This document shows, piece after piece, positions 2,612 through 60,061 of a DNA stretch of 64,000 bases; position 1 is the first letter of the stretch; the number at the start of each line of letters is the position of its first letter. The notes beneath the pieces were generated by a model that ran no database searches, had not been told where the DNA came from, and saw nothing but the letters and a program-made list of their open reading frames with translations. Source of the stretch: an uncultured Clostridia bacterium (GTDB taxonomy: Bacteria > Bacillota > Clostridia > Oscillospirales > Ruminococcaceae); contig CANRLW010000005.1 in NCBI GenBank assembly GCA_947631575.1, forward strand, positions 4,264 to 68,263. The letters run 5' to 3'. Made by a program: the position numbers and the translations under genes.

Positions 2612-2974
2612 TAAGGGGGGACCCTTTTGAAAAAGGGTCCCCCCTTAAACCCCCTCCCAAAACTTTTATGTGCCGCCGCTGACGCGGCGGACGAAAGGCG
2701 AAAACCGCTGTAATAAGTAATAAGTTGTTTTGAGCGGCGAACCACTTTTATTCTTAAAACCACATAACGGGCGGCGCACAAAAGTTTTTTGAAGGAGAGT
2801 CCAGAGAGGAAACTTTTTTGAAAAAAGTTTCCTCTCTGGCAGGGGTGCGGGGACGGAGTCCCTGCGTTCTTCCCCCTTCCCCTTCGGGGAAGGGGGTCAG
2901 GGGGTTAGGGCGAATTAACGTTATTTAGAAAAATACCGTTTGAAAAGAACCACAAATAGATTTGTATACAAGAT
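2612..2974. repeat. Composite intergenic repeat locus: two inverted copies of hairpin module A, module B, degenerate MITE-like end
   Basis: GGGGACCCTTTTGAAAAAGGGTCCCC (2612-2680, minus sense) and CCAGAGAGGAAACTTTTTTGAAAAAAGTTTCCTCTCTGG (2801-2839); CCCCTTCCCCTTCGGGGAAGGGG at about 2872-2895; homologous copies elsewhere in window. Confidence 0.85.
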
Positions 2975-3008
2975 GAGGCAAGAACCGAAGTTCTTGCCTC
3001 TTTCTTCT
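2975..3008. terminator. Intrinsic terminator hairpin
   Basis: GAGGCAAGAAC-CGAA-GTTCTTGCCTC followed by TTTCTTCTT, between convergent genes. Confidence 0.75.
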
Positions 3009-3014
3009 TAACAA

Positions 3015-3284
3015 TTACATTACCTCGTGCTTTACACGAGCCTTTTCTTCGGCGCGCTTTGCGTTGTTGAAACGATCGAGCGTTCCTACGAGATAACCCG
3101 TTATCCTGCGGATACGCTGGAAAGGAACTTCCGCAAAGCTGTACTTTGCGTTTACATAGCCGCCGTCAAGCTCAAGCTCGATAGATCTGAGCGTCTTTTC
3201 GGGGTACTTCTCCTTCGCCTCGTTGATGTAATACTGAATTTCAGCTTCTGAAAGGCTTCCGCCCATAACGTTAATATCAATCAT
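3015..3284 (-). CDS. Small protein resembling the C-terminal glycyl-radical segment of anaerobic (class III) ribonucleotide reductase NrdD
   Basis: RIRRITGYLVGTLDRFNNAKRAEEKARVKH matches the NrdD C-terminus; ATG 3284 behind AGGAG. Confidence 0.75.
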   Translation of the reverse strand: MIDINVMGGSLSEAEIQYYINEAKEKYPEKTLRSIELELDGGYVNAKYSFAEVPFQRIRRITGYLVGTLDRFNNAKRAEEKARVKHEVM

Positions 3285-3396
3285 TTTTATCAATCTCCTA
3301 TCAATATTTTTGGGGTGTGATTAGAGTATAACACAATATCTTGTATATGTCAATTAGCAAAATACACAATTTTATTATAATTTTTTTGTACAAGCT

Positions 3397-4503
3397 TTAG
3401 ACAACGACCTTGTTCTTTCCGCTGTTTTTCCCCTCGTAAAGCCGTTTATCGGCAACCGATATAAGCATATCCATATATGTAGAAGACTGAGCGCCCGAAT
3501 TTATTTTAAGCTCTGTATAATTTGCAAGTCCAAATGTCATACTTACATTGATATTTTCTTCATCATAAACAAGACCGAGCTTGTTTATGTGCGATCTTAT
3601 TTTTTCAGTGCGGGCGAGGCAGTCGTTTCTTGTGCCTATAAGTATCATCAGAATTTCTTCGCCGCCCCAACGTACCGCAATGTCTTCCTCTCTGACTTCA
3701 TCAAGAAATACCTTTGCGACATTTTTCAGCACTATATCTCCGCAGTCGTGACCGTAGGTGTCGTTTATCTTCTTGAAATCGTCTATGTCGCCCATTATAA
3801 CGCAAAAGCTCTCTTCTTTCTTCATGAGCTCGTCAAAATAACCCCACAGGGCATGGCGGTTGTAAAGTCCGGTGAGCGCGTCATGTTCGGCTATGTATTC
3901 AAGCTCGTCGTTCTTTTTGCCAAGCTCTCTTATCAGCCCGGAGATCTCCGCACAGAACATCAGCGTAAATGCGCACAGGCAGACCATTGCGAAGAATATA
4001 TTGACGGTTTTCATTATGATCGTACCCGTAGCATTCAGGGTATGAATATTCATCAGCTCATAGAACGGACCGAAAATATTGTCGAAAACAACGCTTATTA
4101 TCAGCAGAATGACCGACGCGGACGTAAACAGAACGATCTGCTTTCTGAACTTTTCCCTGCTGCCGTAAAAGAACAGGCAATATGCCGCGATGGGAATTGT
4201 CAGCAGATAGTAAACATAAAAACCCACATCTACTCCGAGAAACAGCGTGCAGAGAAAAGCATGTACAACTATTTCGGAATAGATAGCGTTTATCCAGTTG
4301 TCTGCGTGCTCGGATACAGTGCCTTTGTCGCAGGCAGCCGCGCAGCATATGTAAAGGGTTACGCTCAGGACATTAAATCCCGCCAGCAAAAAATAACTAA
4401 GCGATGCAAATTCTATCAGAAAGGTCAGATGCGTCACGGCACAGCAAATACAGATGAGCCTGAATTTATTATCGACAGAAAATTTTGACGCATCAATTTT
4501 CAT
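3397..4503 (-). CDS. Membrane-bound diguanylate cyclase
   Basis: Hydrophobic N-terminal half; HDALTGLYNR, DIDDFKKINDTYGHDCGD, I-site REED and RWGGEEI active site. Confidence 0.9.
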   Translation of the reverse strand: MKIDASKFSVDNKFRLICICCAVTHLTFLIEFASLSYFLLAGFNVLSVTLYICCAAACDKGTVSEHADNWINAIYSEIVVHAFLCTLFLGVDVGFYVYYLLTIPIAAYCLFFYGSREKFRKQIVLFTSASVILLIISVVFDNIFGPFYELMNIHTLNATGTIIMKTVNIFFAMVCLCAFTLMFCAEISGLIRELGKKNDELEYIAEHDALTGLYNRHALWGYFDELMKKEESFCVIMGDIDDFKKINDTYGHDCGDIVLKNVAKVFLDEVREEDIAVRWGGEEILMILIGTRNDCLARTEKIRSHINKLGLVYDEENINVSMTFGLANYTELKINSGAQSSTYMDMLISVADKRLYEGKNSGKNKVVV

Positions 4504-4769
4504 CTTTTTCGCTCCCTCTTTAAATAAATTGCAGATATTTACCGATAACTAACACATACCTGCCCAAAACATTATAATCCCTAATACTAAAATTGTGATC
4601 TATTTCTTTCTCACAATAGGAAAAATTTTACAGACACGCTATAAAAATATCTTTTTATAATTATACCACAAACCGCGGAGAAAATCAACCGCTTTTTATG
4701 ACATCTACACAACTTATTGTTAAAAATTTTTTAGTGACACAACATTGAGTAAATTTTGCGCTTTTGGTA

Positions 4770-4798
4770 TTGACAAATTATTTTTTTTATGGTAATAT
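4770..4798 (+). promoter_or_regulatory. Sigma-A type promoter of rbr-rubredoxin operon
   Basis: TTGACA-17-TAATAT. Confidence 0.6.
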
Positions 4799-4838
4799 AA
4801 ATTTATCCAAAAATTTTATAAATCAGGAGGTTTTTATT

Positions 4839-5404: not shown

Positions 5405-5560
5405 ATGGAAAAACACGTTTGCCCTTGCGGATATGTTTATGATCCCGCTGTAGGCGATCCCGACGGAGGAATTGCTCCGGGAACAAAGTGGGAGGATATT
5501 CCCGACGACTGGGTTTGCCCCGTTTGCGGACTGGGTAAGGACGCATTTGAGACGGAATAA
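5405..5560 (+). CDS. Rubredoxin (51 aa, not in ORF track)
   Basis: Hand translation [51 protein letters not shown]; RBS GGAGG. Confidence 0.92.
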
Positions 5561-5563
5561 ATT

Positions 5564-5595
5564 AAAAACGGACTGCTTTTCGGCAGTCCGTTTTT
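5564..5595 (+). terminator. Intrinsic terminator
   Basis: AAAAACGGACTGC-TTTTCG-GCAGTCCGTTTTT. Confidence 0.85.
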
Positions 5596-5615
5596 CAGTA
5601 TACAGAGTACAATAT

Positions 5616-5672
5616 TGAACAACCTTTCCTCTAAAACTCTAACCTCTTACCTCTTATTTCTTACCTCTAAAA
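5616..5672. repeat. Heptamer tandem-repeat module C (TAACCTC/TTACCTC)
   Basis: Near-identical reverse complement of 58173-58229. Confidence 0.85.
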
Positions 5673-5721
5673 AAGACCGGCGTTATAAAACACCGGTCGT
5701 TTTTTAACTTTTGGGGTTTGT

Positions 5722-9295: not shown

Positions 9296-9590
9296 ATTTT
9301 TTCTTATTGTCTATTTTGCCGACTTTTTAACTTTATAACTTAAATTATGTTTTATTATAAAAAAGCCCGTAAACCCTTTATTTAATCACGTTTTCACAAA
9401 GCTTTCACTTTTTACTTAACTAATTTTCACTTTCAAACGTCAAATGTTACTGAATTGTAACTTTTATTTTGTGCATTATGCTGATTTTGATTTTTGAACA
9501 ACAAAACCCGTATAATTTGAGTAAATTACTTAAATCAGACTGTAGATAACAAAAATGTGAACAGGCAAAAGCAATTGAACTCAAAGAGCA

Positions 9591-12761: not shown

Positions 12762-12984
12762 AATCTTCCTCCTATTTAAAATATGAACCCTGAATAATTG
12801 TAATAAATTTCCATTGGCTCACAAAAATATCCACGTTAATTATACTACATCTTTCGGCAAATAACAAGGCATTTTTTTCATTAAACTGTTTTTTTACGTT
12901 TTGATAAAATTTATCTTCAATTTTTTGTGCAATCCGCATAAAGACAAGCTGCCGCTTACTACTTCCCTATAACCGCTTAACTCT

Positions 12985-13298
12985 AAAACGTTATTTCTCT
13001 CAATTACGCACACTCACCCTATCCCCCTGCCCCCTTCCCCGATGGGGAAGGGGGAGAGTGCGGGGCGCTGCGCGCCCTGCGACCCCGTAGACAGTTGACA
13101 GTAGACAATGTACAGTAGTCAGTAAAAGGAACACCCGCCTTGCGGCGGGTAGGATTTAGATTGTTTTAAGTCAACAGGCACACGAGCCTTACCTTTACGA
13201 TTGCACTTCAAAACGTTTCATTCCGATAACAATCTAAATATTGTCCGCAAAGCGGACACATAAACTGTACACTTTACACTGTAAACTGTATACTGTCA
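12985..13298. repeat. Composite repeat locus: module B plus 212-bp element with inverted heptamer arms
   Basis: GTAGACA GTTGACA GTAGACA ATGTACA GTAGTCA (13087-13121) and ACTGTAC ACTTTAC ACTGTAA ACTGTAT ACTGTCA (13264-13298); internal CCCGCC-TTGC-GGCGGG and GTCCGC-AAA-GCGGAC hairpins. Confidence 0.85.
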
Positions 13299-13607
13299 AC
13301 ACGGTGTAGCAAAAAACGCCTCAATGCTCTCTATCTCGGGCTTATCGCCGATAAAGCGCAGCCGCCTTAAAAGCTCCGTATGCTCGGGCAACTCGAACCT
13401 TGCCTTGTCTATCCCGTGCAGGTTCATCAAATTCAATATCGCGCGTATAAGTCCGTCCGCCATAAACTCGTCACACGAAAGCTCGTCAATAACGAACGTA
13501 TCGATCCCGTCCAGCCTTCCCGCAATGCGTCCGAGTTCTACGCCGTTTTCACGGGCGATATACTCTATCTTGTCAAGATTTTCCTTGTTCTGAATAATTT
13601 CTATCAT
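13296..13607 (-). CDS. Hypothetical protein
   Basis: 103-aa ORF co-oriented with and 9 bp downstream of rluB; RBS AGGT. Confidence 0.7.
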   Translation of the reverse strand: MIEIIQNKENLDKIEYIARENGVELGRIAGRLDGIDTFVIDELSCDEFMADGLIRAILNLMNLHGIDKARFELPEHTELLRRLRFIGDKPEIESIEAFFATPC

Positions 13608-21117: not shown

Positions 21118-21132
21118 AAGCGGCTGGAAACT

Positions 21133-21504: not shown

Positions 21505-21515
21505 ATTATTACATC

Positions 21516-22453: not shown

Positions 22454-22619
22454 TTTTTCTCCTATTCTGCTATATATTTTCCCACTGTGAACACACCTTG
22501 TGTTCTCAAGTATAATTATAGAACGTTTAAATATAATGTTTATTAATTTTTTCTTACGATTTGCTTGCGATATGCTTGCGATTTGCTTACAATTTTACGG
22601 CTTTAAAAAAATCAGTTTG

Positions 22620-23058: not shown

Positions 23059-23063
23059 TGTGT

Positions 23064-28565: not shown

Positions 28566-28631
28566 TTTAAAAAACATAATTTATTTTAACACAAACGTCG
28601 CATTTTGTCAAGGGGTTTGTTGAAAATTTAC

Positions 28632-50754: not shown

Positions 50755-50975
50755 GCGCATTTTTGCGGTTTTAGAGGTAAGAAATAAGAGGTCAGAAATG
50801 AGCGAACAACTGTTCGGCACAAATTCTAACCTCTTACCTCTAACCTCTAACTTCTAATGCCTAACCTTTACAAAAAAGATTTTTTCGGTCGAGCCAAAAG
50901 AAATCGTCCCGCAACAGCGTACGGGACGAACCGGGTGCACGCATTATCCGCCTGCGGCGGAAAACGCTGCATTGC
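50755..50975. repeat. Composite repeat locus (inverted heptamer arms, module D) abutting the att remnant
   Basis: TAGAGGTAAGAAATAAGAGGTCAG (50772-) versus CTAACCTCTTACCTCTAACCTCTAACTTC (50826-); GCATTATCCGCCTGCGGCGGAAAACGCT as at 30285 and 30515. Confidence 0.8.
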
Positions 50976-51145
50976 TCTGCTGGCGGAAAGAGAGGGATTG
51001 AATTTAACCAATTTTTTAGTTTTGCTTTTGTCCACTTATCTTTTAAATTCCTTGATATTATGCGGAATTTTCTGTTTGCCCGTTTATGGAAAATTAAGGA
51101 AAAACCAACGAATTTCGACCAAAACGGGGTAAAAACGGGGCAAAT

Positions 51146-51709
51146 TTATAACCCAAATTTCTTGACCGTCCTATAAAAAGTGTTTGGTTTTAAGCCAACT
51201 TTCTTCATTGTTTCGGTAGCTGTTTGTTTGCCCGACCGCCAAAGTGCGCACTCTTTGCGGAGAAGTTTTTCATCATAAGAAACAGGCTTTCTTCCCGCAT
51301 ATTTGCCCTGCTGTTTAGCAATTTCAATTCCCTCACGCTGACGCTCTTTAATGACCTCACGCTCAAATTCGGCAAGCGCTCCGAAGATTGTGAGCATTAA
51401 CTTGCCCTGCGGCGTTTTCGTATCGAGGTTTTCTTTCTGCGAAATAACTGCAACGCCTTTAGCTTGAAGTTTGTCAATTATCGTCAGTAAATCTCTGACG
51501 CTCCTTGCAAGTCTTGCATACTCCGTAACAATCACGGTATCGCCCTCTCTTACATAGTCCAACATTGCCGACAGTTGAGGTCGCGCCATATTCTTCCCCG
51601 ACAGCTTATCGAGGAACACCTTGTCGCAGGGTATCTTCTTGAACGCCTCTAACTGCCGAGCCTCGTTCTGGTCGATACTGCTTACTCTCGCATAACCTAT
51701 GTTTGCCAT
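51146..51709 (-). CDS. Serine recombinase, resolvase/invertase family
   Basis: IGYARVSSIDQ catalytic Ser, DKLSGK, RPQL, RLARS, AEFEREVIKERQREG, C-terminal HTH. Confidence 0.95.
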   Translation of the reverse strand: MANIGYARVSSIDQNEARQLEAFKKIPCDKVFLDKLSGKNMARPQLSAMLDYVREGDTVIVTEYARLARSVRDLLTIIDKLQAKGVAVISQKENLDTKTPQGKLMLTIFGALAEFEREVIKERQREGIEIAKQQGKYAGRKPVSYDEKLLRKECALWRSGKQTATETMKKVGLKPNTFYRTVKKFGL

Positions 51710-51724
51710 ATTAACACCTCCAGA

Positions 51725-51880
51725 TATGTTATGTCATAATTATATCACTTTTTATGAAATATGTCAATATACACCATAACAAATGTTTTGACATAGATTT
51801 TGACATTTTCACTAAAGTATACTTCAATGACATATAAAAACAAAGTACTTCGCTTGTTGTGATTCCCGCCAACGACATAA
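51725..51880 (-). promoter_or_regulatory. Resolvase promoter overlapping a probable res site
   Basis: TTGACA-17-TATAAT on minus (51739-51767) embedded in repeated and inverted (T)GACATA motifs. Confidence 0.6.
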
Positions 51881-52134
51881 ACTGTTTTCTGGCTATTTTT
51901 TACAAATTTAACCAGAAAAGTAGAAAATTACAATAACAATATTGACAATAAGCGCAATATGTGGTAGAATGTATTAAAACAAGAGAGGAGAAGTATAAGT
52001 TTACTGTATCTTTTAAAAATTTAACATTTTGAATATGTTTCCCACTGGGCGTTTACACGCTTGGTGGGAATCTTGCATTTTAGGGAAAATGTACATTGAT
52101 TTGGTACAAAAAATTAAAGAAAGGGGTTTGTTTT

Positions 52135-52311
52135 ATGGAATTTTCGGCGGAACAAATTAACGACAAAATTAAGGAATTAAAAAGAGCGTATGCGCGTTCT
52201 TATGCGGCACAACATAAAGAGCAGCGCAAGGAACAGCAACGCCGTTGTTGGGAACGCAAGGCTCTCGCGGCTTTGGAACAGGAAATGAAAGAGCAAGAAA
52301 AAACCGATTAA
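52135..52311 (+). CDS. Small basic helical protein upstream of rep (58 aa)
   Basis: MEFSAEQ...RCWERKA...; RBS AAGGGG; upstream promoter TTGACA-17-TAGAAT at 51942. Confidence 0.65.
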   Translation: MEFSAEQINDKIKELKRAYARSYAAQHKEQRKEQQRRCWERKALAALEQEMKEQEKTD

Positions 52312-52406
52312 AAAGAAATGGCGGACTTTCGCCCGCCGAAAAACTGTGTGATGAAGGTCTGTAAACTTCACCGTTGTGATGAAGGTCTGTAAACTTCACC
52401 GTTTGC
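52308..52406 (-). ncRNA. Candidate counter-transcribed small RNA (about 95 nt) with two tandem 28-nt repeats
   Basis: Minus-strand TTGACA(52436-41)-17-TATAAT(52413-18); repeats TGTGATGAAGGTCTGTAAACTTCACCGT x2 (52347-52402); GGCGG-GCGAAAGT-CCGCC hairpin plus U tract on minus. Confidence 0.55.
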
Positions 52407-52561
52407 ATAATTATTATATCAAATATCTGGCAATATGTCAATATATTTTTTTGGAATTAACCGCAAAAATGGTTTACAAAGTACAGACCTTTATCTTCCT
52501 ACTTATATATGTTTATAGTACGTAAAAAAAGACAAATTAGTAGAAAGATGAGGTAATTTTA

Positions 52562-53866
52562 ATGCAAAAAATAGATAAATTCTTTTACGACGGACTGACA
52601 TTTACAAGGCAAAAAGAAAACTTTACTGAAATATGTAATTCAGAATTTGACTACGAAACTTTCGTCTTTCCTGCAACTTCAGACGAAAAAGTTATGGTAA
52701 ACGTAAAATTGAAATCCTGCTATCCTAAAGACCTCTTGGAAATTAATGAACTGAAAGAAGTTTACGCATATTATGACAAATTGGAGAGGGTTCATTTATT
52801 TGGCGAAAGTGAAATAGAAGAAAGCACAACTATATCTTCATCTTCATCAAGCGACAATAGCAATTCGCAAAAGCAAAAAGGTGAAAAAACAAAACGCGAA
52901 GAACCAAACGTTGCACTAATTGATGACACATACTACGTCAAGGGCTATGAAGCAGTTGAAGTTGATTTGTATAATGGTGAATTAGCATATTACGATTTGG
53001 AAAACGATGAATTAAGTAAATTCAACTTTCGAGGTTTGCAACAATTGCGAAGAGGTCATAGAGAAAAAACTAAGGACGTTTTGTTCAATTGCATCGAAGG
53101 CAAAACGCTGTTTCTCTCTTTCAATTCAGGCAATAAGTATATTCTTGACACCCTTCAAAAAATAGTTCGAGCATTTGAAAAATGGATTAAAAGAAAATAC
53201 GCAGACAACCTTAAATTTGCGGTTTTGGTATATGAACCCAACCCAGACGGCAGTTGGCACTTCCACGCTCTTATAACTTTCAATACCGTTCCCGCCGACT
53301 TTGATAAAGTTTTTGCGGACTGGGCAGACAAGTATAACAGCAAGCGCGGGATAAAAGACCAGACAAACGTGCAGCTCCTACAAACAAAGAACGATGTGCG
53401 CTTGACGTGGCTTTATTTGGACGCGACCTCTGAAAAGAAGAAAGATTATGCCGTTTTTTATCCCCCTCGGTTTAAGAATATCGTTATTTTCGGCGAGAGA
53501 ATTTCGGTACCGTCCATCAAAGTGACGGGCGAAACATTGCAGGCTTTTATAAGCGAAACCAACGCAGAGCAAATAGACGGACAGACAATGATAGTTTCAG
53601 ACACACAAACAGGAGAAGTTTTATACGAGTATGGCGAATGGTGGTTCACGGTTGATAAGAGCGTTTTGCGCGACTTAGTTACGAAAACTATAATGGATGC
53701 GATAATGTGTGACAATGAGGATATACTCACATTTTCACTATCCCGTATCGCCGAAAATGGGGGTGCAGGGGGAACGCCTGCCACAATACCTTTTGCCCGT
53801 CAGGGCGAAAGTAGTATTGTGCCTACTGTGCCACCCTATCAACTTTTAGCAAGCAAAGGAGCTTAA
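52562..53866 (+). CDS. Divergent HUH-superfamily rolling-circle replication initiator-like protein
   Basis: Motif 1-like TLFLSF, motif 2 YEPNPDGSWHFHAL, motif 3-like WLYLDA; position between a cop-like ORF and mob. Confidence 0.65.
   Translation: MQKIDKFFYDGLTFTRQKENFTEICNSEFDYETFVFPATSDEKVMVNVKLKSCYPKDLLEINELKEVYAYYDKLERVHLFGESEIEESTTISSSSSSDNSNSQKQKGEKTKREEPNVALIDDTYYVKGYEAVEVDLYNGELAYYDLENDELSKFNFRGLQQLRRGHREKTKDVLFNCIEGKTLFLSFNSGNKYILDTLQKIVRAFEKWIKRKYADNLKFAVLVYEPNPDGSWHFHALITFNTVPADFDKVFADWADKYNSKRGIKDQTNVQLLQTKNDVRLTWLYLDATSEKKKDYAVFYPPRFKNIVIFGERISVPSIKVTGETLQAFISETNAEQIDGQTMIVSDTQTGEVLYEYGEWWFTVDKSVLRDLVTKTIMDAIMCDNEDILTFSLSRIAENGGAGGTPATIPFARQGESSIVPTVPPYQLLASKGA
53759..53840. promoter_or_regulatory. 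Putative MOB-V oriT
   Basis: Hairpins TTTTGCCC-GTCA-GGGCGAAA and AGTAG-TATTGTGC-CTACT just upstream of the mob gene, the usual position of MOB-V oriT. Confidence 0.45.
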
Positions 53867-53870
53867 TTAA

Positions 53871-55124
53871 ATGGGAAATAATGGAAAATGTTTATCGGTA
53901 TCAATGAGCCAAGGGACGGTCGCACTCAATCACAATCGCAGAGAGCATACCCCGAAAAATGCAAACGCAAACCTCTCACATCACAATGTTTATATCAAAA
54001 CTTGTTCGGATTTAGAAAAAGCGTTTAATGAGATTTTTGGAAATGATGTTGCAAATTACAACGAAAAGCAAACCCGCAGTGACCGCCGAATTAAAAATTA
54101 CTATCAGAAAATTCATTCAAGTGAGGGAAAAGAAAATACGGCTAAGACCTGCTATGAATATGTATTTATGTTCGGCAACAGTGAAGATAACAACATAGCA
54201 GAGTTGGGCGAGAATGAAAGCGTATGGGACAGCAGGAATATGCTATTGGAACTTGAAAAGGCATTTGAAGAAAAATATCCAAACCTGAAAGTCGTTTCTG
54301 CGGTGGTGCATATGGACGAGCAAACGCCACATCTGCATATTGATTTTATTCCCGTTGCGACAGGTTACAAAAAAGGAATGGAACATCAATGTTCTTTAAC
54401 AAAGGCTCTTGAAAATTTAGGTTTTCAGAAAACCGAAAAACTTGCAGTTCAAAATTGGCAGGACGATGCAAAACAACTGATGACAGATATTCTTAACAAG
54501 TACGGATATGAACGCGAGTACAAGAATAACACCGAGAAACATTTGTCTGTCGACAAATTCAAACTCCTAAAGGAAAACGAAGAACTTCTCGAAGAAACTG
54601 AAATCAACAAAAAGGTTGTTCGCGAAAGTCGGGAACAGGTTGCCAAGATAAAAGCATTACAAGAGAAACTACAAACTGAAACCGAAGAATTTGTTTCATC
54701 ACTAACGCCTGCACCCACCAAAAAAGTTAAAACGCTTTTTGGAGAAAAGGAAGTTGAAAAATCTGCCGAGGAGTTACAGCGCGACAAAGAAATCTTAGCG
54801 GCACAGTCCGCACTAAAAGCCTGCGCCACTCGACAAGAGAAACAGGAGATTAAGGAAAAGCAACTGAAAGAATTGTCAAAGACCGTTGAAAAAGAAGCAC
54901 TGCAAAATGAAATAGAGCGAAAGACGCTTGTTGAAGAAAAACAGGCTCTTGAAAAAGAAAAGCAGTCATTTGCTATGGCGGTAGCATTAAAGGCAAGACA
55001 AATAGTTGACAAAGTATTGCGCTCACTTGGCATTAGACTGAATAGAGGACACGATTTGACCGAACAGATAAATTTAGCAATCCAGAAAGAAAGGAACGGT
55101 GAAGAACAGTGGAAACAACGATAA
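53871..55124 (+). CDS. mobV: MobV/Pre family relaxase (plasmid recombination enzyme)
   Basis: NHNRRE, CYEYVF, VVHMDEQTPHLHIDFIP, coiled-coil C-terminus. Confidence 0.92.
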   Translation: MGNNGKCLSVSMSQGTVALNHNRREHTPKNANANLSHHNVYIKTCSDLEKAFNEIFGNDVANYNEKQTRSDRRIKNYYQKIHSSEGKENTAKTCYEYVFMFGNSEDNNIAELGENESVWDSRNMLLELEKAFEEKYPNLKVVSAVVHMDEQTPHLHIDFIPVATGYKKGMEHQCSLTKALENLGFQKTEKLAVQNWQDDAKQLMTDILNKYGYEREYKNNTEKHLSVDKFKLLKENEELLEETEINKKVVRESREQVAKIKALQEKLQTETEEFVSSLTPAPTKKVKTLFGEKEVEKSAEELQRDKEILAAQSALKACATRQEKQEIKEKQLKELSKTVEKEALQNEIERKTLVEEKQALEKEKQSFAMAVALKARQIVDKVLRSLGIRLNRGHDLTEQINLAIQKERNGEEQWKQR

Positions 55125-55384
55125 CGATTGAGCCTATGTCAGTCTCTCACTTCTCGGAAAATGCGCAGAAACGTTATTCGGTCAGTTTTTCAACGACTAT
55201 ACCGCTTGAAATCCCTGTGCAGGACGCTTGGGAAATCGTTAGGCAGGTAATCAGTATATGCTTTCCTACCGAGAACGTAAGGCTCGAAACGCTGACAGAG
55301 GACTTAGCGCAAGACCGATATGCCTTTTCCGTCAGCGGAAACAGGATAACGCCAAAACGACAAGAGGTGACAATTTACATATAA
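55109..55384 (+). CDS. Hypothetical protein
   Basis: 91-aa ORF overlapping the mobV stop. Confidence 0.5.
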   Translation: METTITIEPMSVSHFSENAQKRYSVSFSTTIPLEIPVQDAWEIVRQVISICFPTENVRLETLTEDLAQDRYAFSVSGNRITPKRQEVTIYI

Positions 55385-55756
55385 CGTAAACTTGGACAAA
55401 CGAGGAATGGGGTTTGAAGATTGTTTCCGTACCGACAGCCACACCGAACAACAAAGCTCTTTTCTCCCTCTCGCCGCGCACGCCGAAAGGCGGTATGAGC
55501 CGCGACAGCGGCGATTTGGGTAAGCCGCAGGCTGGTAGATAAGATACATAAACTCGGTTTTCAATCAACAATAAGCGCTCAAAAATGCGTTCTATCGTGC
55601 TTATAAAGTAAGGCTTATAAGTTTATCGAATAAGCTCTGAAACGCAAATATAGGGCAATTTAGACGGCAAATATGATATATTAAAATACAAAACGAATAA
55701 AATACTTGACATTTCAAAGATAATAATCTAAAATAAAGCTGAAAGGATAAGTATAT

Positions 55757-56050
55757 ATGAGAAAAAATAAAGTTAATATACCAGCAGTTACAAGTTTAAA
55801 GACCGCTTTGGAGATTTATTACACAAAAATACAACTGAACAATGCAGACGTAGCCGAGCTGTTCGGCAACCACGCTCAAAGCACTATTTCCGCATTAAAA
55901 AAGGTTGCAAGAGATTATATGACAGAAAACAAAATTATGTTATACAATTCGAGAGATGTAAACACCAAAGCAGCGTATGCTGCGTGGGGTATCGACATAG
56001 CAGAAATCGAAAGGCGATACAAGAAAAGCAAAGAAATTGAACGAGTATAA
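55757..56050 (+). CDS. Small protein upstream of integrase, possible excisionase/regulator
   Basis: 97 aa, HTH-like NNADVAELFG...STISALK; promoter TTGACA-17-TAAAAT at 55706-55734; RBS AAGGA. Confidence 0.65.
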   Translation: MRKNKVNIPAVTSLKTALEIYYTKIQLNNADVAELFGNHAQSTISALKKVARDYMTENKIMLYNSRDVNTKAAYAAWGIDIAEIERRYKKSKEIERV

Positions 56051-56064
56051 AGGAGTAATTACAA

Positions 56065-57209
56065 ATGCCTATAACAATTGATAATCGCATTAAGAAGAAA
56101 AACGGCGTTTCGCGTTACCGTGTCCGCATAAACTATACTGATACTAACGGCAAACAAAATCAGATAGAACGGTTGGTATGGGAAAAGCAGATGCGGAGAT
56201 TGTCGAGCGTCAATTGGAAATGGAGTTCAAGAACAAAAAGCAGGTCAAATCAAGCAAAATTACCGTTGAAGAACTGTTTTTGATGTATGCCGAGTATCAC
56301 GCGACTGAAACCCGCAAAACCTCACACTATGCTGTAATGAAACGCTTAAAACTCTGGGTTTTGCCTTATTTTCAAGATAAACGTCTTGACAAACTCTCAC
56401 AACAGGACTTCGCAGAATGGAAAGTCAAGATAAACGGAACAAATTTATCTATTGCAAGCAAACAAAACGTTTATTGTGCTTTCGTTGCTATGCTCAATTA
56501 TGCTGTTAAGTTAGAAATGATACCTAAAAACGGACTTGCTGTTCTCGGAAACTTCAAAGACAGTTCTATTCCAGATAAAACAAACGAGGAGTTTCAATAC
56601 TACACCGCCGAACAATTTCAAAAATACATCTCGGTCGCAAAGTCTGAATGTAAAACAATAGAGGATTGGGACTTTTATGTTTTCTTCTGTATAGCCTTTT
56701 TTACGGGCGCAAGAAAGGGCGAAATACACGCTCTGAAATGGTCTGACATAGAGGGTAATATAATGCATATTCGGCGCAGTATTGCTCAAAAACTCAAAGG
56801 AGATGACGTTGAAACTGCGCCTAAAAACAAGAGCAGCATAAGGGATTTACAATTGCCTGTGCCGTTAATGAAAGTTTTAGACGAACACAAACAACGTCAG
56901 ATAGAGTATGCAGGCGAACATTTTAGTGAGGATTTACGAATATGCGGTTGCACCAGACCACTTCGTGATACGACCGTAGACAAGCGGAACAGGAAATATG
57001 CCGAGAAAGCGGGTTTACCTCGTATTCGCATACACGATTTCAGACATTCTCACGTTTCCCTGCTTGCAAATGAGGGAATAAATATACAAGAAGTCGCCCG
57101 CCGAATGGGGCATAGCACAGTTCAGGAAACTTGGAACAGATACAGCCATCTATATCCCCGCGAAGAAGAACGTGCTGTAAATGTGCTGAATAGCATATCG
57201 GTTGACTAA
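56065..57209 (+). pseudogene. Tyrosine integrase split by a -1 frameshift near 56180-56190
   Basis: ORF 56065 (RBS AAGGAG; RYRVRINY arm-binding-like N-terminus) overlaps ORF 56178-57209 with the full catalytic set TGARKGE, PKNKSS, HDFRHS, MGHS, RYSH. Confidence 0.85.
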
Positions 57210-57276
57210 ACTTTTTCGGGGTTTTTTCGGGGTAACAAAAAAGGAAACCGCATAACAATGCGATTTCCTGCCAATG

Positions 57277-57367
57277 TGGCGGAAAGAGAGGGATTCGAAC
57301 CCTCGAACGGGTTTAGCCGTTACACGATTTCCAATCGTGCGCCTTAGACCAGCTCAGCCATCTTTCC
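57277..57367 (-). tRNA. tRNA-Ser(GGA)
   Basis: GGAAAGATGGCTGAGCTGGTCTAAGGCGCACGATTGGAAATCGTG...GGTTCGAATCCCTCTCTTTCCGCCA; long variable arm; upstream TTGACA-17-TATAAT. Confidence 0.96.
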
Positions 57368-57598
57368 ACAACTATTACCGTAATATTATATCACAAATGC
57401 CGATTTTTGTCAATAGGATTTTTTCAATTTTTTTAGCCCGCAAAATTCCGCCAAAATGCGTTTACTGCTATAGACAAAACCCGTCTGCGTTTGTTTTTAC
57501 GCAAGCGGGCTGATTTTGGTTATGTAGTCGGAAACTTTCCCGGCAGGGACATTATATTGTCCGAACCGGGAAAATTTGCGACTGTCTTGATATTATAA

Positions 57599-57694
57599 TC
57601 AGCGATTGTTGTTCTGGTTCTGCTGGTTCTGGTTGTTCTGCTGGTTCTGATTATTCTGCTGGTTCTGCTTGTTCTGGTTATTCTGATTAGACAT
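57599..57694 (-). CDS. 31-aa Gln/Asn-rich peptide MSNQNNQNKQNQQNNQNQQNNQNQQNQNNNR
   Basis: ATG 57694 behind ACAGGAGGAAATAAGTATT; TGAATA-17-CAAAATA promoter at 57754-57783. Confidence 0.7.
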   Translation of the reverse strand: MSNQNNQNKQNQQNNQNQQNNQNQQNQNNNR

Positions 57695-57789
57695 AATACT
57701 TATTTCCTCCTGTGAAAATTCACATTTATTCAGCGGATTTTCTTCCGCAAAAATATTTTGTCCGGATTTTTCGGGAATATTCAGCATTT

Positions 57790-58050
57790 TTATTTTTGGT
57801 CAAGTTCAAACGCCTCAAGCGTTATTTTGTTTTTTCTCGCTATGCTGTAAAGCTCGTGAAGTCTGCATATTGTTGCGTTTTCTTCGAATATAAGTGCGTC
57901 TATTGAAAACGGGTCGTCTGTATGATCGAAATTTGTACGAATGTCAGAAAGACGGTCAAGAAGACGGTTGTATTCTCTGCGAAGTTTTGTGTTTTCATTT
58001 TCCGTGCTTTTACGTTTAAAAATTTTCAGAAAGATTTCCTTTATGTTCAT
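57790..58050 (-). CDS. YaaL/DUF2508-like sporulation protein
   Basis: NFDHTDDPFSIDALIFEENA pattern; ATG 58050 behind GAGGTG. Confidence 0.6.
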   Translation of the reverse strand: MNIKEIFLKIFKRKSTENENTKLRREYNRLLDRLSDIRTNFDHTDDPFSIDALIFEENATICRLHELYSIARKNKITLEAFELDQK

Positions 58051-58129
58051 AAATATCACCTCAATAATATTTACTCGTCTGTTGGACAAAAAAGAACAGT
58101 TTATATAAAAACCTTTGTTCTTGTCATAC

Positions 58130-58300
58130 TGTATTTCTCTAAATAACGTTTTTTCGCCCTATCCCCCTGCCCTTTTAGAGGTTAGATGTAAGAGGTAAGA
58201 GGTTAGAGTTTTAGAGGAAAGGTTGTTCGTTTTTCGTAAGTTTTCTTACCTCTAACTTCTAACCTCTAGACCCTGAAAAGAAACTTTTTATACAGACAGA
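58130..58300. repeat. Composite repeat locus (partial module B, inverted heptamer arms, MITE-like end)
   Basis: TTAGAGGTTAGATGTAAGAGGTAAGAGGTTAGAG versus CTTACCTCTAACTTCTAACCTCTAG; CCCTGAAAAGAAACTTTTTATACAGAC as at 30769-30795. Confidence 0.85.
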
Positions 58301-58304
58301 ATAA

Positions 58305-58820
58305 TTATGCACCCAGCAAAAGCTTTACGGTTATACCGCAGACAAGCCACGCGGTGAGGTCGGCGGTAAGAGCTGCGGCAGTCGCATAGCGCGTTTTTTT
58401 AGCTTTGACCGCCGAAAAATAAACGGCTATGGTATAAAAAGTCGTTTCGGAAGAACCGATGAGCGTTGCAGCGACGCGCTCTGCAAAGCTGTCAGCGCCG
58501 TTTGCGGCGGCTATTTCGTTATATACCGCCATTGCGCCGCTGCCCGAAAACGGGCGCAGAATAACGAGAGGCACGACTTCCGGCGGGAAAGATACCGTTT
58601 CGCATACAGGCTTTAACAAATTTGTAAGCACTTCGACTGCTCCGCTCGCCTGAAACATTCCTACGCATACTATCAGCAGCGTAAGCGCGGGAAGAATATC
58701 CGCGCAGGTCTTTAATCCCTCGGACGCGCCCTCGCAGAACGCCCCGAACACATCGACCTTTTTTATTGCCGCATAGATAAGCACTCCGACCGTAAGAACG
58801 GGAATTATGTAATCCGTCAT
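58305..58820 (-). CDS. spmB: Spore maturation protein B
   Basis: FCEGASEG, LRPFSGSGA, GSSETTFYTIAVYF. Confidence 0.92.
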   Translation of the reverse strand: MTDYIIPVLTVGVLIYAAIKKVDVFGAFCEGASEGLKTCADILPALTLLIVCVGMFQASGAVEVLTNLLKPVCETVSFPPEVVPLVILRPFSGSGAMAVYNEIAAANGADSFAERVAATLIGSSETTFYTIAVYFSAVKAKKTRYATAAALTADLTAWLVCGITVKLLLGA

Positions 58821-59410
58821 AGTTCTCCCCTTTTCCGCGTTTTTATCCTTGACATGAGCTTTGCGGAAAGCACCGCAATGAAAAGAGAATATGCGGATAC
58901 TATCCAGACGCAAGGAAGAATTTCCATGGGAGCTTTTGCACCGTTTGCCGCGCGGAGAGCGGCGGCTGTCGCGGGAATAATCTGAAGGCTCGCAGTATTA
59001 AGGACAGCCAGCATTATCATTTCATTTGTAGCATAGTCGCCGCTTTGCTGTTCTTCGGATATTGCCTTCATTGCCGCAATGCCTAAAGGAGTAGAGGCAT
59101 TTCCAAGACCCAGTATATTTGCGGCAATGTTCGCGGAAATAAGGCTCATGGCTTTTCCGCCCTTTTTTAAATTTCCAAACAGAAAACCCAGCGGCACAGA
59201 AAGCAATTTTGAGAGCTTTTCTAACAATCCCGCTTTTTGAGCTACCCGCATAAGTCCGCTCCAAAAGCACATCATTCCGCAGATCGAAATAACAAGCTCG
59301 ACTGCCTCTCCAGATTTAGAAATGATACTTCCCGAAAGCTCGCCTATGTTTCCCCTCAAAGCCGAAAATATCAGCGAAACTATAGGTATAATTATCAAAA
59401 TTACTTTCAT
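58817..59410 (-). CDS. spmA: Spore maturation protein A
   Basis: FWSGLMRVA, ANILGLGNASTPLGIAAM, VLNTASLQIIP. Confidence 0.92.
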   Translation of the reverse strand: MKVILIIIPIVSLIFSALRGNIGELSGSIISKSGEAVELVISICGMMCFWSGLMRVAQKAGLLEKLSKLLSVPLGFLFGNLKKGGKAMSLISANIAANILGLGNASTPLGIAAMKAISEEQQSGDYATNEMIMLAVLNTASLQIIPATAAALRAANGAKAPMEILPCVWIVSAYSLFIAVLSAKLMSRIKTRKRGEL

Positions 59411-59614
59411 TTTATCACCTTTTGGCAAATAATTTATTTTTTGTAAATTTTTGTCAATAAAAGTATTGACATTTTTGTAAAATTATGGTATAATATGTTA
59501 GCAGGCGAGATAACAGAACTTTTATGCAGAAAAGCATAGGAAAATTCCGTTGCTCTTCCTGCTGAAAAATCAAATAAGGACAGACAAAAGTCTGACAGAA
59601 AAGGGGAATCTATT

Positions 59615-59884
59615 ATGGTAAAATCAACGGGAATTGTAAGGAAAGTAGACGAGCTGGGGAGAGTTGTTATTCCTATAGAGTTGAGAAGAAACCTCGGTAT
59701 CGACGAGCGCGACGGCATGGAAATATTTGTAGAGGACGACAGGATAATACTTAAGAAATATTCGCCTTCCTGTATTTTTTGCAACAATGCGGGCAATATG
59801 GCTGTATTCAATAACAAAAACGTTTGTACAAGTTGTCTTGAAAAACTGAAAGAGCTTTCAATTGACTCAACTTCGGAATCTTGA
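59615..59884 (+). CDS. abrB: AbrB-family transition-state regulator
   Basis: KSTGIVRKVDELGRVVIPIELRR...LKKY-PSCIFC; promoter TTGACA-17-TATAAT at about 59465-59493. Confidence 0.9.
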   Translation: MVKSTGIVRKVDELGRVVIPIELRRNLGIDERDGMEIFVEDDRIILKKYSPSCIFCNNAGNMAVFNNKNVCTSCLEKLKELSIDSTSES

Positions 59885-59905
59885 GAAAGTATATTCGTTC
59901 TAAAA

Positions 59906-59950
59906 CAAAAAAATGCCCGCGGGAGAAAAGCTCTCCTGCGGGCAGGTTTA
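59906..59950. terminator. Terminator hairpin
   Basis: TGCCCGCGGGAGA-AAAGC-TCTCCTGCGGGCA. Confidence 0.75.
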
Positions 59951-59956
59951 TTATTC

Positions 59957-60061
59957 AGACTGTATATAAAGCCCCATCTACTTCAGCGTTTTCCGCAAAG
60001 CGGATAATGCGGTATTTGGGACTTTCTCTACAGTCTGAAACTTGACTTTTTATACAGTTTG
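59957..60061. mobile_element. Short MITE-like element
   Basis: CAGACTGTATATAAAGCCC left end; right ends GGGACTTTCTCTACAGTCTG and CTTTTTATACAGTTTG; interior module D in reverse. Confidence 0.6.

Follow-up and report, generated by a model that had tools for sequence, protein, structure and literature searches.

Intergenic repeats of an uncultured Clostridia bacterium: a probable mosaic of MITE-like elements inserted into one another

Between the genes of a 64,000-nt stretch of DNA from an uncultured gut Clostridia bacterium (contig CANRLW010000005.1, positions 4,264 to 68,263; hereafter the window), short motifs recur in changing order and orientation, which raises the question of what kind of repeat system they belong to. 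A first-pass annotation had sorted them into five module types, A to E, and direct reading of the sequence bore these out, except for one E site. The repeated sequence lies in 12 intergenic places of the window and, as had been claimed, is missing from the integrated element, with no repeat block at 50939-58097. BLASTN searches with the intergenic pieces of the window against its own genome (97.8% completeness, 44% GC) confirmed that the modules are multi-copy genome-wide, with ~100–224 loci per type (B unit ~224, A core ~100, C arrays ~100). Regular-expression searches of the genome and of a shuffled genome gave 90 and 2 matches, respectively, for the T-type terminal inverted repeat (TIR), 179 and 0 for the B-left arm, 295 and 0 for the G-rich palindrome on both strands, 368 and 6 for the GC hairpin, 71 and 0 for C heptamer arrays and 57 and 0 for D arrays, numbers far above chance. 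Sequence present in at least five copies amounted to 103,119 nt (5.49% of the genome); there were 326 repeat blocks, together ~103–104 kb and ~5.5% of the 1.88-Mb genome, and 97% of repeat bases fell outside open reading frames. Two or more module groups were present in 179 of the 326 blocks and the longest continuous mosaic reached up to 1.7 kb; all genomes are short-read assemblies with repeats at 37 of 176 contig ends, so that some mosaics could be mis-joined.

The five-module scheme proved to be a surface description: the motifs exist, and they are parts of larger elements. A MITE family has E (CAGACTGTATATAAAG; 30781-30796, 32024-32039, 58284-58299, and 59956-59971 plus 60022-60061) as its terminal inverted repeat. 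C (5617-5672, 30432-30475, 30796-30821, 50769-50860, 58173-58269) and D (13087-13300, 30255-30352, 30490-30590, 32160-32195, 50930-50965, 59980-60011) correspond to the arms, built of inverted tandem heptamers, of two kinds of palindromic element. A (2613-2646, 2770-2839, 21175-21250, 22870-22938 in inverted orientation, 23004-23057, 28803-28858) forms part of a ~330-nt core that contains five hairpins and usually lies behind a C arm. B (2866-2912 in inverted orientation, 13020-13083, 28647-28706, 30681-30745, 32094-32150, and in part 58150-58172) is cargo, in which a conserved arm is combined with a G-rich heptamer palindrome and with GC hairpins that are REP-like. The E candidate at 9536-9551 (+) is outside the system, with 13 of 16 bases matching the TIR, in DNA that has no other copy in the genome. 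Based on directly observed copy numbers, ends, duplications, filled and empty sites, nesting, clade restriction and inversion between copies, we consider it probable that the modules are pieces of several non-autonomous selfish mobile repeat families, inserted between genes and into each other.

At the ends of the T-type MITEs stands the inverted repeat CAGACTGTATATAAAG(CC), the left end also having a variant, CAGCTTGTATAAAAACC; allowing up to three mismatches, the TIR had 167 matches compared with 27 for a reversed control. Filled and empty sites in sister species revealed target duplications of 6–10 bp for simple copies and of 13–35 nt for some composites, including exact 6-bp duplications (CCTTGT, AAAAAT). 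Flanks of 16 TIR-bounded copies in the own genome matched at 3.81/6 compared with 3.13/6 in shuffled pairings, the observed value being reached in 2 of 1000 shuffles. The spread of duplication lengths, from 6 to ~35 nt, is unlike that of one fixed-stagger DDE transposase and tells against the explanation favoured here.

In the window, a complete T-type MITE with B cargo (32024-32233, + strand), with a perfect left and a degenerate right TIR, is flanked by the 23-nt target duplication CAATAyAAwTATACATTATATTT, and is missing in genomes G127, G051 and G130, where the flank is single copy. The MITE at 58097-58299 (+) has a T' left end, the B-left arm, a nested C-type element (58173-58269) in the usual place of the G-rich palindrome, and a right TIR at 58284-58299; in G127, the mosaic at its site is longer and includes two nested C-type elements. 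A 106-nt copy (59956-60061, +), missing in G127, carries P-hairpin cargo and a doubled right end between ATTATT flanks (fold z -7.0) and is situated between a stop codon and its terminator.

B units are found in both orientations, and their GC-rich imperfect palindromes of 20–40 nt come in series of 0–3 with short linkers. The inverted unit at 2866-2975 (- strand) consists of the G-rich heptamer palindrome (2871-2903), the B-left arm (2907-2953) and a T' variant MITE end (2954-2975, CACAAATAGATTTGTATACAAG). That at 12972-13086 (+) has the B-left arm, a G-rich palindrome (13020-13056) and a GC hairpin (13059-13083); together with the adjoining D-type element (12972-13300) it is missing in G051, where a small C-like hairpin occupies the site of the B unit. 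At 28615-28758 (+), a truncated left arm is followed by a G-rich palindrome (28647-28686), a GC hairpin and a D-heptamer remnant; the block 28612-28893 is wholly absent from G130 and G122, and replaced in G127 and G051 by a different, ~90-nt C-type element. The unit at 30633-30796 (+) has its left arm at 30633-30680, the G-rich palindrome at 30681-30716 and a GC hairpin at 30717-30745, and terminates in the T-type right end CTTTTTATACAGACTG (30781-30796). A low-copy repeat of 10–13 copies with two hairpins (30152-30260, +) follows tRNA-Thr; G127 has a second, inverted copy adjoining tRNA-Ser.

A-type sequence ranges from a solitary hairpin to the ~330-nt core. A palindromic hairpin (2613-2646, AAGGGGGGACCCTTTTGAAAAAGGGTCCCCCCTT) directly follows the stop of an upstream + strand ORF and is conserved in G127 up to the end of its contig. 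The left part of a core (2726-2865, +; GTTTTGAGCGGCGAAC...), with hairpin a (2801-2839) and GC hairpin b (2846-2865), is joined directly to the B unit at 2866; its orthologous site in G130 has a longer A core with a nested C-type element. The element at 21118-21464 (+) comprises a degenerate C-arm remnant followed by a ~330-nt core with five hairpins, of which hairpin d with its T run resembles a terminator for the upstream HAD-hydrolase gene. With a second, inverted A-type element (22693-22950, -) it brackets a VanY-type gene, and in G051 the segment between the two copies is inverted. A-left fragments with a palindromic hairpin occur at 23004-23058, directly behind the stop of gene 23064-24932, and at 28803-28860 (AGAAAGTTTTTGAAAAGGG).

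The arms of C-type elements are inverted arrays of TAGAGGT-like tandem heptamers and those of D-type elements inverted arrays of xxxCAGT-like ones. Between convergent genes lies half a C-type element (5617-5672, +), with centre GAACAACC and a right arm of ACCTCTx heptamers, where G051 has ~750 nt with small ORFs instead. At 50769-50884, the heptamer arms of a short C-type element (z -6.3) enclose the centre GAGCGAACAACTGTTCGGCAC, whose words also begin the A core, and a right arm of ACCTCTx heptamers is present at 30432-30475 (+). Short C-like hairpins are found behind the VanY-type gene (21475-21504, -; AAGAGGTAAGGA...TCCTTACCTCTT with a T run, terminator-like) and behind a GH5 cellulase gene (30796-30821, GAGGTTAGAGTT-CAA-ACTCTAACCTC, also in G127 and G130). 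The D-type element at 13087-13300 has inverted xxxCAGT arms (13087-13125, 13262-13300) that enclose a centre carrying two CCGC/GCGG hairpins (MFE -70.5 kcal/mol, z -6.9), its right arm supplying the stop codon of gene 13296-13607. In the D/P unit at 30255-30352 (+), D heptamers are interrupted by a P hairpin (GCATTATCCGC-loop-GCGGAAAACGC) and followed by a terminator-like GTCCGC hairpin; a second direct copy lies at 30476-30590 (+) and a solitary P hairpin at 50930-50965 (GCATTATCCGCCTGCGGCGGAAAACGC).

Empty sites, which the annotation had proposed as a check, were found in sister species of ~90–92% nucleotide identity, with ~35 clean presence/absence sites, some overlapping between two comparisons. 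C-type elements were inserted in the G-rich palindrome at two different junctions, presence of the D core inside a D array varied between sister genomes, and B-arm/D-arm junctions without hairpins were observed. As elements nest in one another, lose parts and become duplicated, the mosaic at an orthologous site differs between sister species. Different elements at one orthologous spot could also come from recombination or gene conversion with other copies. For the A, C and D types, the few empty sites available gave no definite ends or duplications, and in many blocks neither a TIR nor a duplication can be recognised, further points against the favoured explanation. The own genome, G127, G130, G051, G133 and G178 have the TIR frequently, seven other genomes of the genus have it at low copy, and 47 of the 61 in the genus lack it. 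In 119 further genera sampled from the family, matches were single and at chance level, except in G062, with ~45 short related copies.

The mobilising gene had been placed outside the window, and none is present within it. An IS1182-type partner, one of those suggested, found no support, DUF772 and DDE_Tnp_1 being absent from every repeat-rich assembly checked. PF01609 was not detected in the own genome or in MITE-rich assemblies, including the 8-contig G062, nor PF05598 in the own genome, G127, G130, G051 and G133; the own genome had neither a TIR-bounded ORF nor a multi-copy IS-like segment. No autonomous partner was found, which weighs against the favoured explanation. The modules match no named family, none having been recognised in the annotation either, and no Rfam model, and no plasmid or phage match explained them; the TIR had no match in viral contigs and single, unpaired matches in metagenome contigs.

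Much of the repeated sequence folds, and the hairpins might have been selected by the host as terminators, 3'-end stabilisers, RNase III sites or small RNAs, spreading through their usefulness, with compensatory changes reflecting selection on RNA structure. Module folds are indeed very stable (z-scores -4 to -9 against shuffles), and terminator-like hairpins with T runs occur inside the A core, D/P units and C-like hairpins, in the orientation of the upstream gene at several loci in the window. The reported location mostly at 3' ends holds as a tendency, not as a rule: repeats occupy 34% of convergent gaps, and also 21% of divergent (promoter-side) and 12% of tandem gaps. Orientation relative to flanking genes had no strong bias; the G-rich strand of B was sense after a gene in 47 cases and on the other side in 26, copies within one array being non-independent, and A cores were near random (34 sense, 29 antisense). 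As to selection on structure, pairing is kept through double changes (at least 10 A-core pairs among 52 copies), but G-T mismatches were about as rare as A-C ones after exclusion of one invariant and two doubtful outer pairs; the pattern therefore gives no pointer to a single transcribed strand and would equally be produced by hairpin-forming DNA or by a small number of master copies. With presence varying at orthologous sites, different elements at one site, T-type ends missing from most genomes of the genus and no Rfam match, we regard a host-functional RNA as unlikely.

Origin in place, by slippage and template switching at gene ends with homogenisation by gene conversion and no transposition, has a precedent in heptamer intergenic repeats of Xanthomonas, Nostoc and Beggiatoaceae that are without known mobility (PMC4692102, PMC4679880). 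Heptamer numbers vary between copies and between the two arms of a copy, an indel in a D array has GTACA microhomology on its flanks, and around PF05635 genes in the family the heptamers are locus-specific. Yet >50–200 unlinked loci share long cores of unique sequence (the A core of ~330 nt, the B-left arm, the D centre) at ~84% median identity, and whole units with TIRs and duplications interrupt otherwise collinear DNA, which makes this origin very unlikely. A REP/BIME or REPIN system, with the GC hairpins and G-rich palindrome as REPs spread by a single-copy domesticated Y1 transposase (RAYT) and the remaining modules as BIME-like linker motifs, would account for serial GC-rich palindromes in a genome of 44% GC, for the mosaic architecture and for the lack of a multi-copy transposase, but is highly improbable, given that PF01797 is absent from this nearly complete genome while the same search was positive in six control genomes, that the hairpins, read directly, lack a consistent adjoining GTAG or CGTC tag, the rule for REPs (PMC3733652), and that the varying units have TIRs and duplications, which are not products of RAYT-type single-strand transposition.

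We thus describe the repeats as a MITE-like selfish mosaic rather than a REP/RAYT system. The earlier picture of a genome-resident, non-coding mobile mosaic stands, and for a large part its MITE reading, with terminal inverted repeats, target-site duplications and clean filled and empty orthologous sites; its BIME/REP-RAYT and IS1182-type components do not. T-type MITEs would insert at AT-rich sites with target-site duplication and carry variable cargo, in which the B unit may occur, be lacking, be multiplied or give way to a nested C-type element, and the ~330-nt A core would travel behind a C arm. Once inserted, copies would be remodelled in place by internal deletion and tandem duplication and by the nesting of further elements, and may act as substrates for inversion or deletion of the DNA between them. 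Movement would depend on a transposase or other enzyme acting in trans, which was perhaps lost from the short-read metagenome assemblies or is of a kind other than those searched for. Effects on the host, such as termination, RNA stability and supply of stop codons, would be by-products and not the reason for the repeats' existence. The C-type arms have their end motif and their design in common with those of a 23S rRNA intervening sequence in a related genus.

The intergenic modules of the window are part of a dense, genome-wide repeat population. The window spans C5:4264-68263 of the source assembly (1.88 Mb in 88 contigs, completeness 97.8%, GC ~44%), which represents a clade of a large genus made up of uncultured gut Clostridia. 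Within the public species set, it was closest to rabbit-gut 'Lapin' MAGs carrying the label uncultured Clostridia, at ~90–92% nucleotide identity in coding DNA, and the genes of the window were typical of gut Clostridia (GH5 cellulase, DAHP synthase, VanY-type peptidase), with a T-box leader in addition. Self-comparison of the genome identified 103,119 nt of sequence present in at least five copies (5.49% of the genome); about one base in 20 is thus small nested repeat DNA. This sequence formed 326 blocks (median 243 nt, longest 1,681 nt), and 97% of repeat bases were located outside ORFs according to a crude ORF-based gene call. Repeat sequence was found at 37 of the 176 contig ends; such repeats break short-read assemblies. 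Selfish, non-autonomous, nested mobile repeats are probably the general explanation of this population, and the mechanism of their movement is one that we infer. The population combines ordinary-looking MITEs, heptamer-armed palindromes and tiny GC/G-rich hairpin modules at an unusual nesting depth and density.

The first-pass annotation had described five module types, A to E, recurring in the window in shuffled order. Reading of each locus confirmed their motifs, except for an E copy placed at 9537, where 13 of 16 positions matched the E motif and the surrounding DNA had no second copy in the genome. An in-window repeat search recovered the same families, and the repeat blocks of the window occupied 12 intergenic places. 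BLASTN searches with intergenic pieces of the window against the source genome gave high copy depths, namely 170–220 for the B unit, which occurred at 224 distinct loci with a median identity of 84%, about 75–120 for the A region (~100 loci, 52 of them near full length) and about 100 copies for the C arrays; motif counts exceeded those in a shuffled genome by at least one to two orders of magnitude. The integrated element, a segment adjoining tRNA-Ser (50981-57295), contained 0 repeat blocks, in agreement with the claim that it is free of modules. At least two module groups were combined in 179 of the 326 blocks, and 74 blocks contained none of the module patterns used, indicating that further repeat families exist. 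An additional MITE-like family (…TTGTATAATTGTCCA…TGGACATAAATGTATAA…), outside the five modules and with a 10-bp duplication (TATTATACAA), was seen at C2:152732-152843 of the sister-species genome G127 and at C30:5318-5593 of the source genome.

Mobility was apparent for the units bounded by the E motif. Many orthologous intergenic gaps of sister species were collinear but for one inserted unit, and about 35 clean filled/empty sites were identified against the sister species, with some overlap between two comparisons. The inserted units started with CAGACTGTATATAAAG(CC) and finished with (GG)CTTTATATACAGTCTG, which is the E motif. Because it bounds inserted, duplication-flanked units, E is the terminal inverted repeat (TIR) of a MITE family, designated hereafter as T-type; a common variant of its left end, T', reads CAGCTTGTATAAAAACC. 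The TIR had 167 matches in the source genome at up to three mismatches, compared with 27 for a reversed control, and TIR-bounded units of 82–325 nt were common there, including a 105/129-nt subfamily with one doubled end. The sequence between the TIRs was variable and consisted of a P hairpin (GCATTATCCGC-loop-GCGGAAAACGC), other hairpins or a B unit. Target duplications CCTTGT and AAAAAT were exact and present as a single copy at the empty sites, and at five other sites duplications of 6–10 bp (CATTTAA, ATAGTA(A), AATTTT(T), xxCTTATT and TTTTATATAT) were likewise single at the empty site. Some composite copies had duplications of 13, 14, 16, 19, 23 and ~32 nt, and the overall spread was 6 to ~35 nt; these non-uniform lengths are not explained by a single transposase with a fixed stagger. 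The flanks of 16 TIR-bounded units in the source genome had a mean best match of 3.81 of 6 positions, compared with 3.13 in shuffled pairings, a value reached by 2 of 1000 shuffles, and the matches included an exact 8-mer (AATATTCT). With TIRs, target duplications, insertion polymorphism and small, non-coding, multicopy units, the T-type family is a MITE family by every structural criterion, a cognate partner IS excepted.

Two sites may record the loss of such units. At position ~75206-75214 of contig C3, where G127 has a 123-nt MITE (C19:3329-3453), all that the source genome keeps is CAGACTGT, followed by unrelated bases; either a footprint of excision or a deletion joining the near-palindromic tips of the element (CAGACTG / CAGTCTG) seems to have left this sequence. 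At C14:29977-30441 the source genome has a 436-nt composite insertion with a ~19-nt flanking duplication relative to contig C11 of G127 and to the corresponding sister-species locus (L037); in the latter, the 19-mer of this site is tandemly doubled with nothing in between, possibly as a footprint of loss.

The C and D motifs, although real, did not behave as the free-standing modules of the original scheme; instead, each forms the inverted arms of a type of palindromic element. A short C-type element (50769-50884) has TAGAGGT-like heptamer arms around GAGCGAACAAC..GTTCGGCAC (fold z −6.3), and a D-type element (13087-13300) has xxxCAGT heptamer arms and a centre with two CCGC hairpins (fold z −6.9). 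The A motif is a single hairpin of a core of ~330 nt with five hairpins. This core was located directly behind a C-type left arm in 12 of its 17 longest copies, and it opens with the words (GAGCGGCGAACAAC) found at the centre of the short C-type element; A therefore seems to be a long cargo form of the C-type element. All element types were predicted to fold far better than shuffled sequences. Double compensatory changes were seen at 10 or more pairs among 52 aligned A cores, and 94% of the cells of the alignment were Watson-Crick. Once an invariant G-T pair and two outer pairs of doubtful status were excluded, G-T pairs were no commoner than A-C mismatches, and therefore no single transcribed strand is singled out.

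The B unit consists of a conserved arm of ~50 nt (GTGGTTCTTTTCAAACG...CTCGCCC), a G-rich palindrome (CCCCCTTCCCC-GAA-GGGGAAGGGGG) with two additional C tracts in front of it, and a series of 0–3 GC hairpins of REP-like type, after which comes a D-type heptamer arm. The GC hairpins (GCGGGG-loop-CCCCGC) gave 368 matches on both strands compared with 6 in a shuffle; hairpin-less junctions, in which CTCGCCC of the B arm is followed directly by TGTTGGCAG of the D arm, also exist. The G-rich region had two distinct points at which C-type elements were nested, after TATCC and after CTGCCC. The G strand of the B core can be read as approximately four G-rich heptamers (GGGGAAG GGGGCAG GGGGTTG GGGCGAG), with four G tracts 6–8 nt apart. 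The G-rich oligonucleotide GGGGAAGGGGGCAGGGGGTTGGGGCG has a complementary C-rich arm, and a perfect hairpin is predicted for the palindrome, which would compete with a putative G-quadruplex.

Within the genus, the 18-nt T-type end was frequent in six sampled genomes only (41 copies in the source genome, 100 in G127, 78 in G130, 43 in G051 and 24 each in G133 and G178); it was rare in seven further genomes and absent from 47 of 61. Among ~120 other genera of the family sampled, it was found only in G062, a genome of a related genus, as ~45 short related copies. Repeats were commonest between convergent genes, where 34% of gaps held them; the share was 21% for divergent gaps and 12% for tandem ones. 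The orientation of the A core relative to the incoming gene was near random (34 sense, 29 antisense), and the G strand of the B unit was sense to the upstream gene in 47 cases vs 26, a modest bias in counts that are non-independent owing to arrayed copies. Terminator-like hairpins with T runs coincided with hairpin d of the A core, with D/P units, which also carry the P hairpin, and with C-like hairpins.

Comparison of the window loci with the sister species indicated movement and turnover. The B-cargo MITE at 32024-32233 is flanked by a duplicated 23-nt sequence, and G127, G051 and G130 lack the MITE and have one copy of the flank; the 106-nt MITE at 59956-60061 is absent from G127. The block at 28612-28893 is absent from G130 and G122, where the T-box promoter is 5 nt from the upstream stop codon, and G127 and G051 have a C-type element of ~90 nt in its place. 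At 2613-2975 and 58097-58299 the mosaics of sister species are related to those of the window but assembled differently, in that their A core is longer or additional C-type elements are nested in them. G051 lacks the B+D composite at 12972-13300 and has a small hairpin of C-like type in its place. The stop codon (13296-13298) of the adjoining gene for 103 amino acids (13296..13607) lies within the D-type heptamer arm, and in G051 (C1:~177000) the stop is another one, provided by a C-like arm and located two codons further on. Where heptamers contain TAG/TAA/TGA, three units suffice to place a stop in every reading frame. At 5560-5720 the source genome has only a half C-type element of 56 nt (5617-5672); in G051 (C1:168921-169722) the rubredoxin terminator and the terminator after it are separated by ~750 nt that include small ORFs resembling membrane-protein genes, suggesting a repeat-associated deletion in the source genome.

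Repeats also marked the edges of rearrangements. A 1.2-kb segment (21344-22562) encoding the VanY-type carboxypeptidase lies between inverted A copies. Its orientation in G051 is opposite to that in the source genome, G127 and G130, which fits recombination between inverted A-type repeat copies. The repeats supply stop codons and predicted terminator-like hairpins and flank the edges of at least one inversion. Given that they also break assemblies and differ between sister species, they can mislead annotation, binning and strain typing; conversely, they could serve as strain markers. Separately, the cellulase-PLD segment (window 30152-32998; 57276) was found in opposite orientation in G127 and G130, with rearrangement edges that coincide with repeat copies. 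In these two genomes the 3' end of the cellulase gene adjoins tRNA-Ser, with an inverted second copy of the ~105-nt post-tRNA-Thr repeat between them, and there was no match to most of the window from 33 to 57 kb, a region that holds the giant surface protein gene and the integrated element. The element beside tRNA-Ser (here 50981-57302) was present in G051 at 90–92% identity on another contig (C39), and was not found in G127, G130 or G122.

By analogy, the closest functional counterpart is the BOX/RUP/SPRITE set of Streptococcus pneumoniae, with 125 BOX, 110 RUP and 30 SPRITE repeats (Croucher et al., 2011; PMC3049150). Both occur in a Firmicute genome of ~2 Mb as several co-resident families of <200 bp to a few hundred bp, are modular (boxA-boxB(n)-boxC), have TIRs, duplications and stem-loops, and include one terminator-like family; restriction to one clade, a parasitic reading, a presumed co-transcription with adjoining genes and similar counts (compared with the 326 blocks here) are also shared. 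The sequences themselves bear no obvious resemblance to the BOX, RUP or SPRITE consensus. Moreover, RUP has a known partner, IS630-Spn1, whereas the window repeats have no recognised one, and nothing in the pneumococcal set corresponds to the heptamer-array arms, the G-rich palindrome or the much greater depth of nesting.

The resemblance to MITEs in general, for example the Correia elements of Neisseria, extends to TIRs, target duplications, the lack of an ORF, a size of 100–400 bp, intergenic location, filled/empty polymorphism and putative hairpin-forming transcripts, and a MITE of P. gingivalis with an internal minisatellite provides a precedent for a tandem repeat inside such an element (PMC4596501). 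The repeats studied here differ in that no cognate IS was found and in the range of duplications (6 to ~35 nt). In a census of 183,232 genomes the maxima, reached in Wolbachia, were 123 MITEs/Mb and 1.23% of the genome (PMC11602168); the values here, ~173 blocks/Mb and 5.5%, exceed both, as judged by a cruder measure and a different method.

The heptamer arms pointed to a second group of possible relatives. No match to PF05635 (S23p / IVS protein) was found in the source genome or in the repeat-rich congeners. In G062, two PF05635 matches proved to be one identical intervening sequence (IVS) inside both 23S rRNA genes (C3:220412-220729 and C3:903711-904028), with the PF05635 gene in antisense orientation. 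This IVS is bounded by CCCC|TTTAGAGGTCAGAAATCAGATGTCAGATGTCAGAAC ... GTTCTCTGACTTCTGACTTCTGATTTCTAACCTCTAAA|AGCC, and its inverted heptamer arms start with TTTAGAGGT and end with ACCTCTAAA, the end words and design of the C-type elements of the window. PF05635 was detected in 18 of 151 genomes of the family, and at at least seven evaluable loci the gene lay between inverted, locus-specific heptamer arrays. The C- and D-type arms of the window, made of tandem heptamers, would form a long paired helix, as in the 23S IVS. A long arm-arm helix is the kind of structure that is removed from rRNA by RNase III. In contrast to the IVS, which can carry a PF05635 gene as in Coxiella (PMC4990558), the window elements are gene-less, intergenic and outside rRNA. 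Homology of the C-type elements with IVS-type cassettes is plausible on the basis of architecture and a 9-nt end motif, with no long alignment. We know of no mechanism by which IVSs move.

Heptameric intergenic repeats have been described in Xanthomonas and Nostoc (GGGNATC / GGGGA(C/T)T; Rehm et al., 2015; PMC4692102) and, as TAACTGA repeats, in Beggiatoaceae (PMC4679880). Like these, the arrays here are tandem 7-nt units in non-coding DNA near gene ends. The approximately four G-rich heptamers of the B G strand correspond to the number preferred in the repeats of Rehm et al., and the D units (TCAGTAA) are similar to the Beggiatoaceae heptamer when read on the other strand. They differ in forming inverted pairs, the arms of palindromes with conserved cores nested in MITEs, and most of the heptamers (TAGAGGT, xxxCAGT) are not G-tract motifs. 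To our knowledge, none of the heptamer repeats of Xanthomonas, Nostoc and Beggiatoaceae has a known mechanism. Unrelated phyla also contain the G-rich palindrome CCCCTTCCCCGAWGGGGAAGGGG, accompanied by additional C tracts spaced ~7 nt apart. Bare copies with preceding C tracts and other flanks were found in Hymenobacter (extracted loci L001, L007, L015, L028, L043 and L067), Ignavibacteria (L023 and L045), Thermomicrobiales, Gemmatimonas and others, and in Hymenobacter the palindrome occurs as inverted pairs around CTAG-rich heptamer-like arrays. Searches of plasmid and phage collections gave no match to the repeats beyond 44 nt of a Nostoc plasmid (NZ_CP117772.1:505935-505978), which matched the G-rich palindrome of module B. 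This recurrence could reflect convergence or a very widely spread small element.

A joint reading would place the heptamer-armed palindromes (C-type, D-type and the G-rich B core), the PF05635 23S IVSs and the heptamer repeats of Xanthomonas, Nostoc, Beggiatoaceae and Hymenobacter in one cross-phylum class of cassettes, with the window elements as gene-less, MITE-like offspring. Movement would be other than by a classical DDE enzyme, for example by hairpin- or gene-end-targeted insertion through a host or PF05635-linked function, and the T-type duplications of 6 to ~35 nt would be the signature of an unusual mechanism. We regard this reading as improbable. Two links are testable, the heptamer-array arms common to gene-less intergenic elements and 23S IVSs within the same bacterial family and the G-rich heptamer palindrome recurring across phyla, both of which bear on how IVSs and heptamer repeats spread.

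Membership of the REP/BIME/REPIN-RAYT group was not supported. The first-pass annotation had proposed a BIME/REP-like or MITE mosaic, and its MITE half is borne out by TIRs, duplications and filled/empty sites. On the REP side, the repeats include serial, imperfect, GC-rich palindromes of 20–40 nt in extragenic mosaics with no multi-copy transposase, as in REP/BIME/REPIN systems (PMC3116915, PMC3733652). The mobile units here differ in having TIRs and duplications; a search for PF01797 (RAYT, Y1 HUH transposase) gave 0 matches in the source genome and was positive in control genomes, and the GTAG/CGTC tag (rule: PMC3733652) is lacking. In ~45 aligned copies read, CCCCTGTTGRCAG comes after the GC hairpins, and GTAG is sporadic, as at 13087.

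Derivation from IS4, IS5, ISAs1 or IS1182 was rejected, the corresponding PF01609/PF05598 transposases not being co-resident with the repeats. PF01609 (DDE_Tnp_1) was found neither in the source genome nor in eight of nine other TIR-bearing assemblies, including the 8-contig G062; the sole match was a fragment in G161, a low-copy genome of the genus. PF05598 (DUF772; IS1182/IS5 N-terminal domain) was present in 19 of 61 genomes of the genus; among the repeat-rich ones only G178 had one weak match, and the source genome, G127, G130, G051 and G133 had none, contrary to the IS1182-type partner suggested earlier. G161 and G062 were dismissed as the home of an autonomous element, containing only tandem or short MITEs, as were the HUH Rep of the integrated element, which is absent from the most repeat-rich genome (G127), and a co-resident PF05635 partner, absent from the source genome and its congeners. 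Rfam matches of the window at gathering score were a T-box and two tRNAs only, with no repeat module, and at E≤1 none in 21100-23100 was above gathering. No TIR match was found in viral contigs, and 76 loci in metagenome contigs included none with a TIR pair 60–4,000 nt apart and were mostly chance 18-mers.

In the source genome, 20 TIR pairs were 0.6–3.5 kb apart, and the ORFs inspected between them were all ordinary genes (for example, LytTR regulators, pantothenate kinase, RlmN and dihydroorotase). Multi-copy IS elements are commonly lost from short-read metagenome assemblies, and since the assemblies used are short-read and MAG-like, the absence of a partner is weak evidence; it was consistent across six repeat-rich assemblies and G062. 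With no recognisable transposase in six repeat-rich genomes, the mobilising activity is a concrete target. None of the multi-copy segments of at least 500 nt in the source genome was IS-like. A 1.36-kb segment at C6:5661-8367 was tandemly duplicated with 99% identity and was unrelated to the repeat families.
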